Shown: positions 2,493 through 12,658, numbered from the stretch's first letter. The stretch is DNA of 13,625 bases from a virus (IMGVR_UViG_2681813234_000008:1-13625), one strand, 5' to 3'. Made by a program: numbers and translations. The notes: generated from the sequence alone by a model not told the origin.

Positions 2493-3320
2493 TTATTTAA
2501 CCTGGATAAATGGCGTATTGGCGCCGCTGGTCATGTATTGCGGCAGTGTGCCGTTCCATTTATTGATGGCTTCCAGTTCCATAACTCCAGGGTTCTGGCG
2601 CAGAGCTTCACCGCGTAAACGAATAGCATCGGCTTCGGCCTGGGCTTTTGTGCGAATCGCATCAGCCTGTCCGGCAGCTTCCGCGCGCAGCATGTTGGCT
2701 TCCGCTTCGCGCTGTTTTACTTCCTGCTCGCGTTGCAGGGTTTTCTGGTTTGCCGTGACTTTGGCATTAATGCTGTCGATAACGGTTGGTGGGTACTCCG
2801 GTTTACCTACATATGAGAGGCTCACTACCTGAATACCGATGGGTGTCATTTCTGCCTGAATGTCTTTAAGAGCAGCATCCAGCAGTTCAGACTTGCCGCC
2901 GTCGATAAATTTGTCGGTGGTCATTTTGCTGGCCAGTCGGTTGAGTGCGTCGGCGATCTTCTGGCGCAGGTCGGTGTCGGTAATGTCATCCACGCCTTTG
3001 CGGTAAGTCTGAAACACCGTGGTAACTTTGGATGGATCAACTTTGTAGGCCACGCCAATGTGATAGCCGATGGTTGTACCGTCACTCATCTGGAAACTGA
3101 ACGGTTCATCGTAGGTCTTCATTTGTTTGAAGGTGGGGAAGATATAAACTTCAGTATTCCAGCCAGTCCAGTAGCGACCAACACCGACCACCTCACCGAC
3201 GCCTTTGTCGTCGCCCAGTTTATTTACCTTGATGCCAACATTACCTGGTTCAACGCGATCGCAACCGACAAGGCCAATAGTCGGCAGAACAATGGCTAAA
3301 GCAAAAATAATTTTTTTCAT
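2493..3320 (-). CDS. SPFH/Band-7 (HflK/HflC-like) lipoprotein, predicted inner-membrane anchored
   Basis: N-terminal signal peptide with lipobox LVGC followed by Asp at +2 (inner-membrane retention rule). Core resembles the HflK/HflC pattern (VEPGNVGIKVNKLG ... IGIQVVSLSYVGKPEYPPTV), followed by an Ala/Gln/Glu-rich coiled-coil tail. SD AAGGA; ATGA overlap with the upstream small gene. Confidence 0.7.
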   Translation of the reverse strand: MKKIIFALAIVLPTIGLVGCDRVEPGNVGIKVNKLGDDKGVGEVVGVGRYWTGWNTEVYIFPTFKQMKTYDEPFSFQMSDGTTIGYHIGVAYKVDPSKVTTVFQTYRKGVDDITDTDLRQKIADALNRLASKMTTDKFIDGGKSELLDAALKDIQAEMTPIGIQVVSLSYVGKPEYPPTVIDSINAKVTANQKTLQREQEVKQREAEANMLRAEAAGQADAIRTKAQAEADAIRLRGEALRQNPGVMELEAINKWNGTLPQYMTSGANTPFIQVK

Positions 3321-4644: not shown

Positions 4645-5010
4645 TTATTGCGCTAATTCTTTTTCGGCAGCAGATTTTGCATATTCACATGCAAAATTCA
4701 GAATTTCGCTGCCAAGTGTTTTTGTTTCGTGATTACTGGACATATGTAATACCTGTGTTGCATGCAATAAATGATAAACATTTACCGCAAATGAATCAGG
4801 CTCCAGACAAATGCCTTCATAATCATCTTGTTGTGAGGTTGTTTCTGTCATTGCTCCTGAAGTGCATGCGAGCCTGTTTTTGACAATTCTCTTTCCTCTA
4901 ATCACTATATCGGCAACATCTATTGCCTTTACAACCTCCGGGAGAAGGTCCGGGTTTGTATAATCAAAGTCATTAACATGGAGAACAGTTATGTTTTCGA
5001 ACTTTTTCAT
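4645..5010 (-). CDS. Hypothetical protein (121 aa)
   Basis: Track ORF with GAGGAA SD upstream of the ATG at 5010. It lies downstream of an HTH gene on the repressor strand. No recognisable domain. Confidence 0.55.
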   Translation of the reverse strand: MKKFENITVLHVNDFDYTNPDLLPEVVKAIDVADIVIRGKRIVKNRLACTSGAMTETTSQQDDYEGICLEPDSFAVNVYHLLHATQVLHMSSNHETKTLGSEILNFACEYAKSAAEKELAQ

Positions 5011-5138
5011 GGCTTCCTCAGCTGACTTATATGTTCTGCTATATAGCGAGTCTCAGAAGTGTTTTCATATTGAGACTGTTTCCTCAATGATTGATAAAAA
5101 TGTTCGCATGTACCTTGAGGGGCGAAGCGGCGATTATG

Positions 5139-5657
5139 TCACCATTGGTATTGGTTCTTCCGTAGAAGAGCTTCGCGAGATAAGGAGCAAACTTGTTGAG
5201 ATGCGTCATGGTGTTGCTGCTCCTCACTTTTTGGTTGCTCCGGAGGAGTAACCTCACCAGTTAACAGCCACATCGGATCGCAGCCAAGAATATTTGCCAG
5301 TGGGATAAGCATACTGATAGTTGGTTCATACTTTCCGCTCTCCCACTGGATGATAATTTCTTCATCGAGATCGAGCAGCCTGGCGAGTTCGGCGGTTGTT
5401 AAGCCGCAAGCTTCGCGTTGAGTGCGAAGGCGGGAACTAATAGTCACCATAGCAAGGCGACGGCAAGATTTAGTGCGCTCTTGCCTTCTTTGTGAAAAAT
5501 CTTCTTGTGCAAGAGAAGATGCCAGTTCAGCTGAAATTAGAAGTAATGAATATGAAACATCTCGCTCTTTCTCGGTACCTGAAGACAACAAGCAGGCTGC
5601 GTTAAGGGATGCAGAAAGCTTGTTGATGTCATCTATAGCGTCAATAAAATCGATCAT
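5139..5657 (-). CDS. XRE-family helix-turn-helix protein (172 aa) with extra N-terminal region
   Basis: Central HTH_3-like segment (GLTTAELARLLDLDEEIIIQWESGKYEPTISMLIPLANILGCDPMWLLTGE). GGAG lies upstream of the ATG at 5657; the alternative start at M70 (5450) lacks an SD. Confidence 0.6.
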   Translation of the reverse strand: MIDFIDAIDDINKLSASLNAACLLSSGTEKERDVSYSLLLISAELASSLAQEDFSQRRQERTKSCRRLAMVTISSRLRTQREACGLTTAELARLLDLDEEIIIQWESGKYEPTISMLIPLANILGCDPMWLLTGEVTPPEQPKSEEQQHHDASQQVCSLSREALLRKNQYQW

Positions 5658-5697
5658 TTCTCAAAGCTCCAATAATGCGCTGTGAGGCAATGATTCA

Positions 5698-5728
5698 TCA
5701 ATTATAATTGATAGTCAAGTATGATTTA
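5698..5728. promoter_or_regulatory. Operator-like 14-bp perfect palindrome TCAATTATAATTGA (5698-5711) plus adjacent half-site TCAAGTA (5715-5721)
   Basis: Palindrome read directly from the sequence. It sits between the repressor stop and the start of the 172-aa HTH gene and matches the site family in the repressor/cro intergenic region. Confidence 0.45.
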
Positions 5729-6211
5729 GTCTTTTTGATTGAGTTTTTGCGTGATTAGCAAGATGTTTTTTGAGTGTTCTTCCAGAAGATTTTTTGCAAA
5801 ATCCAACACCTTTACCCTCTCTTTTGTGGGTAAATTCGCAAATATTTCAAATAAATAGCTTGTATCCTCAATGATTGTTGGATCTATAGATTCAATAATA
5901 CCTCGTATCAGTTTGTTGCTCATTGAATCAAAAAGAGTTTCTCCATTCTCCCGGGTAAGTGTGTACTTAGGTTTTTCTGTGTTTCCATTTAAAAGCCACT
6001 GTACGTCGCACTGTAAGAGTTCTGATAATTTCAATAGCTTATCGCTAGTTATGCTTGTCTTTCCTTTCTCCCACAAAGATACAGCAGCCATTGATACCCC
6101 CATTGCTTGTGCCAGCTTTAATTGACTTAAACCAAGTTCTTTTCTGCGTGACAGAATCCTGTGCCCCATTGAGAGTGGGGAAGACTGACATGACTTTAGT
6201 TTTGTATCCAT
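5726..6211 (-). CDS. Prophage repressor, XRE-family HTH, no recognisable S24 peptidase domain (CI analog)
   Basis: N-terminal HTH (LGLSQLKLAQAMGVSMAAVSLWEKGKTSITSDKLLKLSELLQCDVQWLLNG). Transcribed divergently from the Cro-like gene. Track ORF trimmed to the ATG at 6211, which has a GAGGG SD. The C-terminal 90 aa show no Ser/Lys autopeptidase motif. Confidence 0.7.
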   Translation of the reverse strand: MDTKLKSCQSSPLSMGHRILSRRKELGLSQLKLAQAMGVSMAAVSLWEKGKTSITSDKLLKLSELLQCDVQWLLNGNTEKPKYTLTRENGETLFDSMSNKLIRGIIESIDPTIIEDTSYLFEIFANLPTKERVKVLDFAKNLLEEHSKNILLITQKLNQKD

Positions 6212-6291
6212 ATTGCCCTCAAGTATACTTGATAGTAAGATTGTGTTGTAATTCCTGTTGCTAAGCTTAATCAATTAATGTTGAGGTCTCA
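6212..6291. promoter_or_regulatory. Divergent immunity promoter/operator region with two 14-bp sites, TCAAGTATACTTGA (6219-6232) and TCAATTAATGTTGA (6271-6284)
   Basis: The first site is a perfect palindrome and the second is a 12/14 match to the 5698 palindrome. Each abuts the SD of the gene on its side. -10-like hexamers (TATACT, TAAGAT) are present, but promoters are not mapped. Confidence 0.5.
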
Positions 6292-6531
6292 ATGATAAAG
6301 ATTAGTGCAATTAAGTTTTATGGTTCGCAAAGGGCGATTGCTCAATCACTGGGGATTAGCGAGCAAGCTGTTTCTCAATGGCCAGAACTCATTCCTAAAG
6401 GTGCAGCTCTGGAGCTTGAGAAACTCACTGATGGCGCTTTGAAGTGCGATCTGAACCTGTACAAGAACCGCTCGCGCAAAAACAAGCGTGAATTGCACCC
6501 AAGCTTAGCGCACACGGGGGAGGAGAAGTGA
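6292..6531 (+). CDS. Cro/YdaS-like small DNA-binding regulator
   Basis: 79-aa ORF with the YdaS/Cro-type motif GSQRAIAQSLGISEQAVSQW ... PKGAALELEKLTDGALKCD. Divergent from the repressor; GAGG SD. Confidence 0.7.
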   Translation: MIKISAIKFYGSQRAIAQSLGISEQAVSQWPELIPKGAALELEKLTDGALKCDLNLYKNRSRKNKRELHPSLAHTGEEK

Positions 6532-6851
6532 TGGGCGTGTACGTTGATCGTAGAGAAATACTTCTTGATTGCGTGCAGATAGACATGCCCTCGGCTTATA
6601 GCTCAGCAGATGCTGAGTGGATTAAGCAGCAGTTACTTAGCCTGACACTCACGGCACGACAAAAAGCCATCCAGCGTTATGGCGTTGTGTATCAGGAGGC
6701 ATTTGAGGCCGAACCCATTTCGTACCGTAAGGAGAACCGGGCAAGGCATGAAGCAAACACAAGGCTTCGCCTGTTTGTGAGAAATCAGGGCAGAGCTTTA
6801 CAGGGGTATGCCGCCGAACCTCCCCTGGCTGGAACGCAATCGCGATCCTGA
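6531..6851 (+). CDS. Hypothetical protein (106 aa) in the CII position, Arg-rich C-terminus
   Basis: ATG overlaps the cro stop (TGATG) with a GGAGGAG SD upstream. No recognisable HTH, so a CII-like role is a positional guess only. Confidence 0.5.
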   Translation: MGVYVDRREILLDCVQIDMPSAYSSADAEWIKQQLLSLTLTARQKAIQRYGVVYQEAFEAEPISYRKENRARHEANTRLRLFVRNQGRALQGYAAEPPLAGTQSRS

Positions 6852-6935
6852 TTGTTTCGGGTTTGAAGGTACCCGAACAGAAGCAGGCTTAAAGGTGCCT
6901 GTTCAGGTTGGCAACCAACTGACCCAATTCCTCAT

Positions 6936-6960
6936 GCGTACTAGGTAAGTAGTACGTTTT
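6936..6960 (+). terminator. Weak intrinsic-terminator-like hairpin
   Basis: Stem CGTACTA / TAGTACG with loop GGTAAG, followed by TTTT. AT-rich stem, so stability is modest. Lies about 85 nt after the 106-aa gene. Confidence 0.3.
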
Positions 6961-6963
6961 TAT

Positions 6964-7017
6964 GGGGAAGAGGGAAAGGGGGGAGGGGGGGGATTGGGTG
7001 CAGGGGTAGGAATAGGG
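6964..7017. repeat. G-rich polypurine tract with runs G4, G3, G6, G8, G3, G4, G3
   Basis: Read directly: GGGGAAGAGGGAAAGGGGGGAGGGGGGGGATTGGGTGCAGGGGTAGGAATAGGG. The first 30 nt are pure purine. It sits inside a 428-bp intergenic region. Confidence 0.9.
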
Positions 7018-7279
7018 ACTTTTCCAACAGGAGAGAGCCATTGGTTAAGTAGATCACTGTCTTAAGGGCGCAATTTAAAAAAACGCCTGTATCAGCAAGA
7101 TAGTACAAGGCGCTCAGGCGCTGAGAAACGAAAAAGGGTTCTTCCTGGAAGAGTGTTTTTCAGGGGAACTGAATCTGAAGGGAGGCTGGCAGCCTTTGGG
7201 GAGGCCACCAGCCATGTGAGGGGGAATCCATGAAAACCACATCACAAAATTATTATCTCATCAGCACTGGAGCAAAACA

Positions 7280-8932
7280 ATGGAGCTGACGATCACGCCG
7301 AATTTTGCACAGGAACGAGCGTTAAACATGTTGCGTCGTGACTGGAAGGCAAATGACACCTTCATGGTGTATTCGCCAACTGGTAGCGGTAAAACCGGTT
7401 TGGCCGCTTTCATCGTTGCAGGGTTTGTCAGCCGTGGTATGCGCGTTCTGTTTTGTGCACCGTACACTATCCTGATTGGTCAGACGGCTAATCGCTTCGT
7501 GGAGTACGGGTTACCGGAGGATGAAATCGGTTATATCTGGGCGGATCACCCGAACTACGATCCGGACCGGAAAATTCAGATTGCCAGCGCCGACACGCTT
7601 ATTCGTCGTGTTTTTCCTGAAAATATTGATCTGCTGATTATCGACGAAGCACACCTGCGTAAAAAACGCATCCTGAAGGATATCGAACGTCTGCGCGGCA
7701 AAGGCGTAAAGGTGATTGGCCTGTCGGGTACTCCGTTTTCCCCGTTCCTGGGCAAATACTATGACCGACTAATTAAACCGACCACCATCGGCGAGTTAAT
7801 CCAGCGTGGCGATCTGAGTAAATACGAATTTTATGCGCCAACAAAGCCGGATCTGAAAGGCGTAAAAACCAAGTCTTCACTTGAGTACGGCAACGATTAT
7901 AACGAAGCTCAACTGGCTGAAATCATGTGCGGCTCTACGCTGGTGGGCGACATCGTACAGAACTGGCTGGAGAATGGCCGGGATCTGCCGACAATCGCGT
8001 TCTGCGTCAACGTAGCCCATGCTAATTTTCTGACAATCCAGTTTAACCAGGCTGGCATTAACGCTGAGGTCATGACCGCCAACACGCCAGTGGATGAGCG
8101 TCAGACCATCATTCACCGCTTTGAAACTGGTGCAACGAAAATCATCGTTAGTGTGGGCGTTCTGGTGGCTGGCTTCGATAGTGACGTTCGTTGCATCATC
8201 TACGCCAGGCCAACAAAAAGTGAAATTCGCTGGCTGCAGGCGATTGGGCGCGGCCTGCGCACAGCGCCGGGTAAAGAATCTTGTCTCATATTCGATCACA
8301 GTGGCACCGTACACCGCCTCGGTTACCCGGATTCTATCGAGTATGACGATCTCCCCGGTAAGTCTGATGGCATGGAGGAAAGTGCGCGCCGTGCAGCTGA
8401 GGAGCGGGCCGAAAAACTCCCCCATGAATGTTCTCAATGCCACTACATGAAACCCGCTGGTGTCTACGTCTGCCCGAAATGCGGGCATAAGCCGTTGGGT
8501 GGTGAGGATGTCGATACCGATACCGGGCGCAAACTTAAAAAGCTGGGTAAAAATCAGCATCTATCGACAAAGGCAGAGAAACAGGCTTGGTGGAGCCAGA
8601 TCAAATTTTATCAGCGCCAGCGCGTATCGCAGGGGAAAAAGCCCGTTAGTGATGGCTGGTGCGCTCACATTTTCCGGGAGAAGTTCGGCGAATGGCCGGA
8701 TAACCTGAGTGATTTCCCGATGGAAATTACCCCGGAGGTAAGCAACTACATCAGATACAAACTCATCAGGTTTGCGAAAGGGCAAAAACGCCCCCCTCAA
8801 CCACAGACAGAATCTCATCATGCAGGCGCATTGCCGCTAGGTTGTGCCGCAATTTACGAGCTCCCTGAGAACTGCCCGACTAAGGCAATTATCAACGCCA
8901 AACAGCAACTTCAGAAAAATGTAGTGGTGTGA
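7280..8932 (+). CDS. Superfamily-2 DEAD/DEAH-type helicase with C-terminal zinc ribbon (replication module)
   Basis: Walker A SPTGSGKTG, motif II LIIDEAH, motif III LSGTP, motif VI QAIGRGLR, and a C-terminal CSQCHYMKPAGVYVCPKCGH. GGAG SD upstream of the ATG. Confidence 0.85.
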   Translation: MELTITPNFAQERALNMLRRDWKANDTFMVYSPTGSGKTGLAAFIVAGFVSRGMRVLFCAPYTILIGQTANRFVEYGLPEDEIGYIWADHPNYDPDRKIQIASADTLIRRVFPENIDLLIIDEAHLRKKRILKDIERLRGKGVKVIGLSGTPFSPFLGKYYDRLIKPTTIGELIQRGDLSKYEFYAPTKPDLKGVKTKSSLEYGNDYNEAQLAEIMCGSTLVGDIVQNWLENGRDLPTIAFCVNVAHANFLTIQFNQAGINAEVMTANTPVDERQTIIHRFETGATKIIVSVGVLVAGFDSDVRCIIYARPTKSEIRWLQAIGRGLRTAPGKESCLIFDHSGTVHRLGYPDSIEYDDLPGKSDGMEESARRAAEERAEKLPHECSQCHYMKPAGVYVCPKCGHKPLGGEDVDTDTGRKLKKLGKNQHLSTKAEKQAWWSQIKFYQRQRVSQGKKPVSDGWCAHIFREKFGEWPDNLSDFPMEITPEVSNYIRYKLIRFAKGQKRPPQPQTESHHAGALPLGCAAIYELPENCPTKAIINAKQQLQKNVVV

Positions 8933-8937
8933 GTTTT

Positions 8938-9906
8938 ATGAAAACAGTAGATGCTGCGAAAGGCCGCTGGCCTGAAATTTTAGAGCATTTTGGTCTGCCA
9001 CCGATAACTGGAAAAAATCACTATAAAGGAGAATGCCCTGTATGCGGTGCGCGCGGAAAGTTGCGAATTGATGACCGTGACGGGCGTGGAACGTGGATTT
9101 GTACTTGCGGCAGCGGTGACGGTATGAAGCTTGTCACCCTGACACAGGGAAAACCATTCAATGAGGTTTGTAGGGAAATAGACCACCTGATCGGTAATGA
9201 TTTTCAGCGTGTAAAAATCCCGGTCAGCAGCAGCGCTACCAGCCTGCGTACAAAGGTTCTGAATAAGTTCGCGAAGCTGCAGCCGTTACGTGGCACTTCT
9301 GGTGCTGCGTATCTCAATGCGCGCGGCATTTTCAGTCTGCCGCTTGAAGCGATCCGTTTCAACGATAAGCAGCGCCATGCCGGGAGGGTGTATCAGTCGC
9401 TTTATTCCCTCGCCACCGATGATAAAGGGGAACTGTGCTATCTGCATCAGACATTACTCGATGGCCCCAAAAAAGCAGATATCGGTGCCAGTGCAAAGCG
9501 CCAAAAATCCCTGCAGGAAGATAACTATCTTGATCACGCCCGTTCAGTAGCGATCCGGATGTTCCCGGTAGCCAGCACACTTGGCATCGCCGAAGGCATC
9601 GAAACGGCTCTGTCAGCGCACCAGATTTACAACGTAAACACCTGGGCAACTATGACGGCTAACTTCATGAAGAAATTTCGTGTTCCGGCTGGCGTTAAGC
9701 ACCTGATTATTTTTGCTGACCGTGACGAAAACAGTGCCACCGGATTGGCAGCGGCCTATGAATGCGCTCATGCCAATCTGCTGGCAAAGAATGACCTGCA
9801 GCGCGTGAGCGTGTACTGGCCCGATCACGATGATTTTAACAACATGCTCATGAACGGCGATCAGGTTCGTGAGCTGGTTTTCTACAAGAAAAAGGCGACT
9901 GCGTAA
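8938..9906 (+). CDS. DNA primase, N-terminal zinc ribbon plus TOPRIM-like domain
   Basis: CPVCGARGKLRIDDRDGRGTWICTCG zinc-binding motif and an acidic TOPRIM-like motif LIIFADRDENSATG. Coupled to the helicase stop; the track start is a GTG at 8929, and the ATG at 8938 is preferred. Confidence 0.65.
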   Translation: MKTVDAAKGRWPEILEHFGLPPITGKNHYKGECPVCGARGKLRIDDRDGRGTWICTCGSGDGMKLVTLTQGKPFNEVCREIDHLIGNDFQRVKIPVSSSATSLRTKVLNKFAKLQPLRGTSGAAYLNARGIFSLPLEAIRFNDKQRHAGRVYQSLYSLATDDKGELCYLHQTLLDGPKKADIGASAKRQKSLQEDNYLDHARSVAIRMFPVASTLGIAEGIETALSAHQIYNVNTWATMTANFMKKFRVPAGVKHLIIFADRDENSATGLAAAYECAHANLLAKNDLQRVSVYWPDHDDFNNMLMNGDQVRELVFYKKKATA

Positions 9907-10766
9907 TGCGTACAGATAACAACGAACATAAAGCACTATTCACCATCCCGACGGCAGCGCATAGCTCCGCCCTGGCAAACATCAAGCCTCTGCCTGAGCA
10001 ACAGAGAATCACCGGGCATAAACAGACCGATGCCTATCTGTGGGTACTGGAGGTCATCCGCCTGAACGAACCGGCACATCTGGACGCTGCAGAAGCAGCG
10101 CTGGAGAAAATTAAAATCTCTCCAAAAGAGGCCGAGGAGCGGTATTCCCGTTATCTGCTGGCGAATGGCTGTGATCCTTTCCAGGCAGCTTTCGGTACTA
10201 TCGGTATGGATAATCCAGCGAGAGCCATTGAAAATGCGCGTAAGAACATCAAGAAAGCTGCTGATGTTCGCGCTACGTTCGGCAGCTATGAGGCTGCGAT
10301 GGAGGACGTAGAGGCCGAGCGAGTGATCAGGTCTTCCCAAAAATTTACTGATGATTACCTGTGGGGCTGGACCGCAGACGAAAAGAGAGACGGAAGCATT
10401 AACGGCAGTCGTATGAATGAAATTGATGATCAGCGTCGCGCATATGTTGATGGCTATCGTGACGTTCTGCCAGAGCCTCATACACTGTCAGATGTTGTTC
10501 GTGAATTTGTTTACTGGGACTGGCTTTACAACGTTCGCCGTACTGCTGGCCAGGAACTCGGCTACGACTTTGGTTATTCCGAACACCATGAGTCTGTATA
10601 CGACCGTGAGCGATACCTGGAAAAATTACTGGCAACCATCAAACCGGTGACACGCGCTGAAGCTGTGGAGGTGTGCCGCTGGTTTCTGGCAAGCGGAAAG
10701 GACGAATACATGGAAGACAACGGGGCGGCAGTCATTCTTAATCTGGTTGGAGAGTGCGAACAATGA
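9906..10766 (+). CDS. Hypothetical protein (286 aa)
   Basis: ATG overlaps the primase stop (TAATG). Codon usage matches the replication module. No recognisable domain. Confidence 0.6.
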   Translation: MRTDNNEHKALFTIPTAAHSSALANIKPLPEQQRITGHKQTDAYLWVLEVIRLNEPAHLDAAEAALEKIKISPKEAEERYSRYLLANGCDPFQAAFGTIGMDNPARAIENARKNIKKAADVRATFGSYEAAMEDVEAERVIRSSQKFTDDYLWGWTADEKRDGSINGSRMNEIDDQRRAYVDGYRDVLPEPHTLSDVVREFVYWDWLYNVRRTAGQELGYDFGYSEHHESVYDRERYLEKLLATIKPVTRAEAVEVCRWFLASGKDEYMEDNGAAVILNLVGECEQ

Positions 10767-12169: not shown

Positions 12170-12658
12170 ATGGCTATTCAAATCTCAGTTGAAACTCTTT
12201 CCCCGATCACCCATAACCAAATCCCTGTCATTACTACCGAGCTTTTGGCACAACTTTATGGCACCGAAACTAATAACATCAAAGTGAACTATACACGCAA
12301 TGCCGAGCGTTTTGTTTGTGGGAAACACTACTTCAAATTGGAAGGGGCTGAGTTGCGGGAATTTAAGAACAAGGTTACTCAAAGTAACTTAGTTGCACCG
12401 CGTACAAAGCACCTCATCCTCTGGACAGAACGCGGAGCAGCCCGTCACGCCAAAATGCTGGAAACCGATCAGGCGTGGGAAGTGTTCGAAAAACTGGAAG
12501 ACTGTTATTTCAGCCAAAAACAACCACCAGCAGCACAAAACACCCCAACCCAAAATGATGGATGCGCATTACTGATCCACTTCGATAAACACGGTCAGGT
12601 CGACTTCACGGAAAAACTACCCGCCGATGCGATGGTATGCACTCTGGAACGGTTTTAA
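12170..12658 (+). CDS. ORF6N-domain protein (antirepressor-like N-terminal domain family)
   Basis: Pattern LAQLYGTETNNIKVNYTRNAERFVCGKHYFKLEGAELREFKN ... LILWTERGAARHAKMLETDQAW is typical of ORF6N/KilA-N-like phage proteins. AGGA SD 7 nt upstream. Confidence 0.65.
   Translation: MAIQISVETLSPITHNQIPVITTELLAQLYGTETNNIKVNYTRNAERFVCGKHYFKLEGAELREFKNKVTQSNLVAPRTKHLILWTERGAARHAKMLETDQAWEVFEKLEDCYFSQKQPPAAQNTPTQNDGCALLIHFDKHGQVDFTEKLPADAMVCTLERF

Follow-up and report, generated by a model that had tools for sequence, protein, structure and literature searches.

The window, meaning the whole 13,625-nt stretch of DNA that was analysed and over which all positions are counted, contains a small open reading frame directly after cro (6531-6851), here labelled X. 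It is followed by a noncoding spacer and then by genes for a helicase, a primase and a further protein (Table 1). The ATG of X overlaps the cro stop codon and is preceded by a strong SD-like run, suggesting that X is probably translationally coupled to cro. An alternative call places the start at GTG 6528, one codon upstream, and gives a protein of 107 aa.

Table 1 Features at the X locus, with window positions and the basis of each call
Feature	Position	Strand	Basis or remarks
cro, P22_Cro/DicC-like HTH	6292..6531	+	PF14549, E = 1.3e-16; variable immunity module
SD-like GGGGGAGGAG (6516-6525), then ATG of X in the cro stop (TGATG)	6516..6533	+	Sequence reading
Gene X	6531..6851	+	ATG at 6531, stop ends at 6851, 106 aa; ORF call and translation
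X as cassette gene 1			PHROG 852; core of three predicted helices, the third basic, then a conserved C-terminal tail
Conserved core of X	6585..6851	+	Begins at Met19-Pro20; blastn starts and protein alignment
Noncoding spacer, X to helicase	6852..7279	+	428 nt, no credible ORF; strongly constrained
Inverted repeat GCGTACTA-GGTAAG-TAGTACGT, then TTTTTA	6936..6963	+	Terminator scan
Purine-rich tract, nearly C-free, core GGGGGGAGGGGGGGG at 6978-6992 (G6AG8)	6966..7020	+	
19-codon uORF MKTTSQNYYLISTGAKQWS, SD-like GAGGGGG	7231..7289	+	Sequence reading; overlaps helicase start codon
SF2 DEAD/DEAH-box helicase, Zn-ribbon, Eru1A-like	7280..8932	+	Pfam ResIII, Helicase_C, DEAD; phrog_16
P4-alpha-type primase, Zn-ribbon, DUF7146, Toprim, Eru1B-like	8929..9906	+	Pfam; phrog_510
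286-aa protein, phrog_6204, without Pfam match	9906..10766	+	PHROG match

X is a genuine gene. Over 6606-6848, its dN/dS among 68 close relatives is 0.15, which identifies it as a real protein-coding gene under purifying selection. An identical protein is E. coli WP_072291181.1, named 'hypothetical protein', and RefSeq holds start variants of 97 aa and 88 aa in its 90% cluster. Conservation sets in only at residue ~19-25, the first 18-24 residues being variable. In most related loci, blastn similarity to the window likewise begins inside X, at 6582-6606 (about codon 18-25), which places a mosaic joint with the immunity region in the 5' end of the gene. The homologue in Stx phage P13374, ORF34, begins at the position of Met19, making this residue a possible alternative or ancestral start. 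Given this start and the 88- and 97-aa versions, the first 18 codons of X may be an extension derived from the junction.

The protein has 12 Arg residues and a computed pI of 9.25. Its basic character is concentrated in residues 63-90 (net charge +6, pI 11.9), the remainder being neutral or acidic. The preliminary description had reported a 106-aa protein with an Arg-rich stretch directly after cro, and this is borne out, the string YRKENRARHEANTRLRLFVRNQGRA being found exactly at residues 65-89. The core of this stretch, A-R-x-x-A-N-x-R-L-R, is kept at 86-99% across 140 diverse family members, so the Arg-rich character is not a product of chance.

X matched PHROG 852 with E = 1.4e-37 (residues 15-105 onto profile positions 7-97 of 98). 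The database labels this family 'unknown function', so membership names X without explaining it. A word-indexed search retrieved 371 relatives; the named ones, which came from Escherichia, Citrobacter, Enterobacter, Salmonella, Klebsiella, and Leclercia, were all 'hypothetical'. When 1.84 billion cluster representatives were searched with a profile, 239 clusters matched at E <= 0.001 and 69 of these at E <= 1e-10, giving a family of at least 239 clusters (clustering at 50% identity). Its core motif reads D-x-x-W-I...Y...A-R-x-x-A-N-x-R-L-R-x-F-V. P20, D27, W30, Y50, A71, R72, A75, N76, R78, L79, and R80 are each conserved at 86-99% in the 140 diverse members, and the key residues stay near-invariant even in highly divergent phages, among them relatives from Vibrio, Shewanella, and Gilliamella. 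Pfam and NCBIfam scans of X returned zero matches even at E <= 1; the same searches assigned cro to P22_Cro and both leftward repressor-like proteins to HTH_3. A Pfam scan of the 140 relatives revealed no common family, only eight families that each matched one relative. PADLOC gave no family for X at E <= 0.001, and PDB sequence searches with two X profiles gave nothing below E = 0.1.

We modelled X with AlphaFold, and the mean pLDDT rose from 69 with a shallow alignment to 86.8 with the 140 diverse relatives. The model contains helices at residues 25-36, 40-60, and 64-90 (12, 21, and 27 residues), then a tail at 91-106. Ten-residue block means of pLDDT are 94-98 for residues 21-80 and 88-98 for the basic helix 64-90, and the 16-residue tail is of lower confidence. 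The predicted fold is a long helical hairpin with a short capping helix, not an HTH. The Arg-rich stretch had been described as the C-terminus of the protein. It is indeed Arg-rich, but it forms helix 3 and the tail comes after it, so it is not the extreme C-terminus. The absence of a recognisable HTH held up, as no HTH model matched X and the model is a hairpin of long helices. In a Foldseek search against PDB, the best match had E = 1.4 and HTH proteins were absent among the matches; against BFVD, only unnamed family members were found, at 23-39% identity. Apart from PHROG 852, the profile and structure searches pointed to no function for X, and no solved structure resembles it. The conserved polar residues of X could be structural rather than functional.

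We then compared gene neighbourhoods across ~190 related loci, where helicase and primase were almost always linked to X and the upstream cro and CI genes varied. The close set consisted of 82 loci (80 IMG/VR contigs, Fels-1, and phage Fostie). In every one of these that extended long enough downstream, a helicase gene lay ~430 nt downstream of X and was followed by the primase. A cro homologue (39% identity) was found in 8 of the 82 and went undetected in the other 74, and CI homologues were similarly rare. The linkage to the helicase, the variability of cro and CI, and the start of homology within X itself identify X as the first gene of a replication cassette. The earlier view of X as a regulator in the CII slot is therefore not upheld: the gene belongs with the helicase and primase, which are constant, while cro and CI vary, and its 'CII slot' is a positional coincidence. 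Many relatives, though not every one, have inherited the gene for the 286-aa phrog_6204 protein together with the cassette (tblastn across loci).

The wider set comprised 109 further loci, retrieved by a degenerate DNA pattern built on the hallmark motif. In class A, the order was X, a spacer or extra ORF(s), a helicase 57-97% identical to that of the window, and the primase. X itself was 35-89% identical, and the helicase still followed at 35%, for example in a Gilliamella prophage; a pattern scan of genome contigs yielded a single locus, from Gilliamella. Class A was present in the Stx phages P13374 (from the O104:H4 outbreak), TL-2011c, PA2, phi191, and VT2phi_272, in Fels-1 (where X is STM0899.1n), ENT39118, Fostie, several Klebsiella prophages, and Vibrio phages, and in records of 37-43 kb deposited as plasmids. 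In class B (at least 12 distinct loci), a distant SF2 helicase of 600-660 aa (phrog_16, 24-29% identical) was encoded upstream of X, a phrog_824 protein lay between the two in several loci, and X was short (69-135 aa). Among annotated phages, Serratia phage Eta shows the class B order, with X downstream of the helicase; neither cro nor cI was found beside X within the 5.8 kb viewed. The linkage between X and the helicase thus survives a change in gene order.

Measured against the window protein, the identity of X correlated with that of the helicase (Spearman 0.76-0.78) and of the primase (0.82). In class A proteins, helix 3 is followed by a tail motif, G-[YLI]-[TV]-x-x-P-[PK]-L, whereas class B proteins stop directly after the helix; the tail accompanies only the arrangement with a P4-type primase and a short helicase. 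The middle of the cassette was exchangeable and contained a RepL-like winged-HTH protein, a member of the STM0899/ORF35 family, or noncoding DNA, which indicates that recombination between X and the helicase occurs. In a few relatives, genes for SSB or a DNA methyltransferase adjoined X. Some family members had no detectable helicase nearby, a fusion to a P-loop domain, or a PcfJ neighbour. In this comparison, X accompanies the helicase more constantly than any other gene, whichever of the two comes first. What this linkage shows is module membership, as distinct from a physical interaction or a role in replication.

The cassette resembles the Eru1 module of non-lambdoid Stx phages, whose helicase, primase, and DUF1367 genes were named eru1A, eru1B, and eru1C by Llarena et al. 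2021 (PMC8044961). Both have cI, cro, a small ORF, an SF2 DEAD/DEAH helicase, and a Toprim primase in place of lambda O/P. In a protein-level comparison of the full genes, the window and P13374 are 67% identical for the helicase (ORF36), 57% for the primase (ORF37), and 49% for X (ORF34). P13374 also has GGGGGTAAGGGGG after its X gene. In contrast, the window lacks eru1C (DUF1367/NinB) as a third gene, having the phrog_6204 protein instead, and it lacks ORF35 at the position where P13374 has it. Eru1 is defined by eru1A, eru1B, and eru1C at > 80% nucleotide identity and coverage to TL-2011c (PMC8044961). On these comparisons, the cassette of the window is Eru1-like and not strictly Eru1. A megablast of window positions 5100-7300, which include X and the spacer and end just 21 nt into the helicase gene, reached Stx phages via the repressor region only.

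Cassettes with X replicate the Stx2a phages of the 2011 O104:H4 and 2006 O103:H25 outbreaks (PMC8044961), as well as Fels-1 of Salmonella LT2 and many Klebsiella, Enterobacter, and Citrobacter prophages. Published accounts of Eru1 name the helicase and the primase and omit the small ORF between cro and the helicase; it is not discussed in PMC8044961, PMC8951638, or a 2025 lambdoid-phage paper. The X family is already catalogued, is widespread and has members in medically important phages. With a confidently predicted fold and no solved relative, X is a cheap target for studying how non-lambdoid phages start replication. Since toxin output follows phage replication, X also bears on influencing Stx production.

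The spacer between X and the helicase is itself under strong constraint. Column identity in 15-nt blocks was mostly 0.86-1.00 (69 sequences), and the divergence of 0.085 compares with a dS of 0.437 for X, i.e., 0.19 times the synonymous rate. The central part (~6870-7166) is swapped for an ORF cassette in four loci (L001, L050, L052, and L053). The uORF at the end of the spacer is almost invariant (column identity 0.96-1.00). The inverted repeat may serve as a terminator-like hairpin or as a palindrome bound by a protein, GTACTA-N6-TAGTAC. Within 250 nt after X, GTAC-N(6-16)-GTAC occurred in 26 of 83 unique loci (0.02 expected per window). The only k-mers enriched downstream of X in 41 diverse representatives were G-runs (15-18 of 41) and GTACTAG (11 of 41). 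None was common to all 41, so a universal DNA target beside X is unlikely.

The core of the purine-rich tract reads GGGGGGTAAGGGGGG in most relatives. A core of the form G5+-N(1-4)-G5+ was found in 57 of the 109 loci, always on the X strand and at a median of 115 nt past the X stop; there was none elsewhere in 1.1 Mb. Both G-runs are invariant even where the flanks are unalignable, P13374 included, and the G4Hunter score of the tract (2.72) is the window maximum. Loci whose spacer encodes a RepL-like winged-HTH protein or, mostly, an STM0899/ORF35-family protein are exactly the ones without the tract. RNAalifold returned 0 pairs for 16 diverse regions, so a base-paired RNA motif at the G-tract was rejected, and an Rfam scan of 5000-8000 found nothing relevant. 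The motif AGATCAC lies further along the spacer, past the G-tract.

We compared X with known early phage proteins by hhalign. Against lambda CII, the 140-sequence profile gave a probability of 0.1%. X shares with CII its place right after cro on the early rightward transcript, but it differs from CII, CP76, and YdaT in having no HTH, no Pfam match, and no profile similarity, and in being linked to replication genes. By sequence (Pfam, hhalign) and by predicted fold, X is not an analogue of CII or YdaT, in agreement with the preliminary description. For CIII, the probability was <= 0.2%. Lambda P (PF06992) gave 0.1-0.2% with a single sequence and with a 22-sequence profile. A weak visual resemblance between helix 3 and residues 40-75 of lambda P was rejected, as these probabilities did not exceed 0.2%. 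Like lambda P, X is small, helical, and encoded in a replication operon beside a helicase function. The helicase loaded by lambda P is DnaB of the host, whereas the phage studied here brings an SF2 helicase of its own. SF2 helicases are not known to require loaders, which counts against an adaptor role for X.

P4 Cnr (ORF106, DUF5375) also has 106 aa, a coincidence of length, and is encoded directly upstream of a P4-type primase gene. As a relative of X it was rejected, with an hhalign probability of 0.2% over 2 aligned columns and no DUF5375 Pfam match. X differs from Cnr in being basic with a three-helix core. The systems differ as well, in that P4 alpha carries its own SF3 helicase and a separate SF2 protein is encoded here. 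Cnr reportedly controls P4 replication via the alpha primase-helicase. In functional terms, Cnr is the nearest precedent for a small protein that partners a P4-type primase.

The best-supported role of X lies in the Eru1-type replication module and not in the lysogeny decision. The cassette consists of X, a variable middle element, the SF2 helicase, and the P4-type primase, and X stands outside the lysis-lysogeny switch. We tentatively favour X as an accessory or adaptor of the helicase-primase module that acts at initiation, a reading that we hold at somewhat short of an even chance. Building on the observed membership, conservation, and tail retention and on the predicted fold, we infer a mechanism, binding surfaces, and partners as follows. 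X would be expressed along with Cro from the early rightward transcript and fold as a compact three-helix unit. It would act at or just before replication initiation, beside the helicase-primase pair. The basic face of helix 3 (R72, N76, R78, and R80) may contact nucleic acid or an acidic partner, and the flexible conserved tail, G-Y-T-x-x-P-P-L, may dock onto a class A-specific partner. Counting against this reading are the exchangeable middle of the cassette, the lack of a k-mer common to all 41 representatives, the family members found apart from a helicase or as fusions, and a possible structural role of the conserved polar residues.

The basic helix would also suit an RNA-binding or elongation-modulating factor, in line with the antitermination idea of the preliminary description. 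X might govern read-through of the downstream hairpin and G-tract, and so set helicase and primase expression or act as a switch between transcription and priming. The hairpin with its T-run at 6936-6963 fits such a role, and so does the G-tract, which lies on the sense strand 51-807 nt past X wherever it occurs. In a Vibrio phage relative, a strong terminator directly after X is followed by a promoter-like site before the replication genes. Eru1 phages are said to lack homologues of lambda N, CII, and CIII (PMC8044961), and no N-like Pfam match was found among the left-operon ORFs scanned. X thus resembles lambda N in being an Arg-rich early gene product of phages said to lack N. However, hhalign of X against lambda N gave no similarity (probability 0.1%), and the basic motif lies within a confidently folded helix near the C-terminus, whereas that of N is in a disordered N-terminal arm. 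The overlap of cro and X leaves no space for a nut site there. After X, we found hairpins and the terminator-like element, but no boxB-like or nut-like site. Also counting against control of read-through are P13374 and phage Eta, which have no terminator after X, the position of X downstream of the helicase in at least 12 loci, the absence of the G-tract from half of the loci, and a spacer with neither conserved Watson-Crick RNA structure nor an Rfam match. We consider this role unlikely.

X could instead be an early protein directed at the host, for instance one that inhibits or recruits a host protein of replication, repair, or defence, and would travel with the cassette only as a passenger. 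It is small, early, and basic, and its flexible tail contains a short linear motif that is conserved. Residues nearly invariant across diverse phages would fit a host target better than a phage-specific DNA site, and some family members are not beside a helicase. Against this, X is tightly linked to the helicase whichever gene comes first, and the two diverge in parallel. PADLOC offered no match, and by Pfam and Foldseek X is unlike any known host-takeover protein. Such a function is thus quite improbable, more so than control of read-through.

A more speculative proposal joins X and the constrained spacer into a transcription-primed origin, or switch, for helicase-primase phages; we regard it as very unlikely. 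The 15-mer GGGGGGTAAGGGGGG is the exact reverse complement of the vertebrate mitochondrial CSB-2 core, C6-TTA-C6, as printed in PMC6295329. A G6-N(1-3)-G6 tract would stall the early transcript, and an R-loop or G-quadruplex would prime or open the origin. X would then choose between read-through, with expression of helicase and primase, and priming, in analogy to mitochondrial CSB II and TEFM. A RepL-like winged-HTH initiator in the spacer with no G-tract would be as expected of two alternative origin solutions. Exclusivity of the 15-mer to the X module was refuted, as 97 of 113 further IMG/VR contigs with it lack X nearby; we estimate that this is about what chance would give for a 15-mer in such a collection. 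Because the bare 15-mer is not specific, the origin and R-loop reading is offered as a hypothesis and not as a finding. For Eru1-type phages, the constrained spacer with its G-tract is a candidate origin.

It is extremely unlikely that X is a functional analogue of CII, i.e., an unstable activator of lysogeny with FtsH turnover modulated by the prophage SPFH protein: X does follow cro immediately, both here and in numerous relatives, a homologue is labelled 'CII transcriptional activator' in one phage record, and the window includes an SPFH lipoprotein gene, but X has neither an HTH nor a Pfam family match, has no profile similarity to lambda CII, sits in the replication cassette and not in the immunity module, and occurs in phage Eta without an adjacent cro or cI. 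The link to SPFH suggested in the preliminary description found no support either, since an SPFH homologue was found in just 10 of the 139 relatives with at least 4 kb upstream, and the two are not co-inherited. All other records of X homologues are hypothetical. The best match cited in the GenBank record with the CII label is gene 7 of Serratia phage Eta, itself 'hypothetical' and located after the helicase, so the label is positional. Our analysis corrects this annotation by position, which has already entered at least one GenBank record. In the window, the gene that matches the PHROG family 'CII-like regulator' (E = 2e-39) is another one, on the minus strand at 5139-5657, which also counts against X as the CII analogue.

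The gene directly after cro (X, encoding a 106-aa PHROG 852 protein) and the helicase gene are separated by a noncoding spacer (6852-7279), whose divergence of 0.085 is about one-fifth of the synonymous value in the adjacent gene (0.437). We compared this X-to-helicase interval across related loci and found it to be occupied by three alternative cassettes. In Salmonella prophage Fels-1 and three IMG/VR loci, an ORF-bearing cassette substitutes for the central spacer (about 6870-7166). The winged-HTH cassette and the G-tract were not found together in any of the related loci.

Features of the window and alternative contents of the X-to-helicase interval in related loci (L-numbers)
Feature	Position	Strand	Matches and remarks
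SPFH/Band 7 protein	2493-3320	minus	phrog_200 'lipoprotein' match
HTH protein, 172 aa, left of the CI-like repressor	5139-5657	minus	PHROG 4739 and 4836
CI-like repressor, HTH, adjoins cro	5726-6274	minus	
Palindrome, then TTTTTA	6936-6963		GCGTACTA-GGTAAG-TAGTACGT
Purine-rich tract, almost C-free	6966-7020, core 6978-6992	sense strand of X	two long G-runs
Upstream ORF (uORF), 19 codons	7231-7289		MKTTSQNYYLISTGAKQWS; own Shine-Dalgarno-like GAGGGGG
ORF6N-domain protein, antirepressor-like	12170-12658		further right than the CI-like repressor
Alternative 1: winged-HTH protein, 133-181 aa	e.g. L092:4766-5206, L101:3541-4083, L196:4611-5012		RepL/HTH_36 matches; 12 distinct versions
Alternative 2: 115-134 aa family	e.g. 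L001:3988-4356, L193:4990-5367		function unknown; Fels-1 STM0899, P13374 (Stx phage) ORF35
Alternative 3: G-tract-bearing noncoding DNA	between X and helicase gene		

Just 3' of X, 57 of the 109 related loci carry a sense-strand G-tract, which is found at no other position within the loci. Its core is G6AG8 in the window and mostly GGGGGGTAAGGGGGG among relatives, and the purine-rich tract has the window's maximum G4Hunter score (2.72). Read as its reverse complement, the common form matches the core of vertebrate mitochondrial CSB-2. Viral contigs that lack X also contain the exact 15-mer, at a frequency close to chance.

The palindrome may be a protein-binding site just as well as a terminator, because its GTACTA...TAGTAC is conserved as sequence, with no covariation, and occurs in two copies in some relatives. 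At the other end of the spacer, the uORF overlaps the start codon of the helicase gene (7280) and is almost invariant among close relatives. It may encode a leader peptide or act as a translational-coupling device. The Shine-Dalgarno-like sequence of the uORF adjoins positions 7208-7221. Of the 14 nucleotides here, 12 (86%) are complementary to a segment of the same length (CCTCCCCTGGCTGG, 6819-6832) that lies 375 nt upstream, within the 3'-terminal part of the X ORF. Long-range RNA pairing spanning the spacer is possible.

Searches for related proteins revealed the X domain fused to other parts on short contigs (P0246, P0254, P0258, P0245, and P0255). In high-GC metagenome proteins, a Cys-rich region (CxxC...CxxC) precedes the X domain, which is C-terminal. 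The P0245 protein has the domain at its N-terminus, followed by a P-loop (AAA_18-like) region, and a PcfJ-like gene adjoins.

The preliminary description had placed X in the CII slot. The HTH protein at 5139-5657 matches PHROG 4836 ('CII-like regulator', E = 2e-39) as well as PHROG 4739, a family of unknown function, and is a better candidate for a lysogeny regulator than X. The SPFH/Band 7 protein, proposed earlier to affect the stability of X, has a lipoprotein-type signal (…LVGC) at its N-terminus. Its gene behaves like optional cargo, as it is present in only 10 of 139 related prophages. No peptidase S24 domain match was detected in the CI-like repressor; prophage induction may proceed via an antirepressor instead of RecA-mediated cleavage. 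Complete phage genomes (37-43 kb) that carry the replication cassette of X, helicase and primase have been entered in the database under Klebsiella, Enterobacter, and Morganella as non-mobilizable plasmids (e.g. NZ_CP076549.1, L201); these could be episomal or induced forms.
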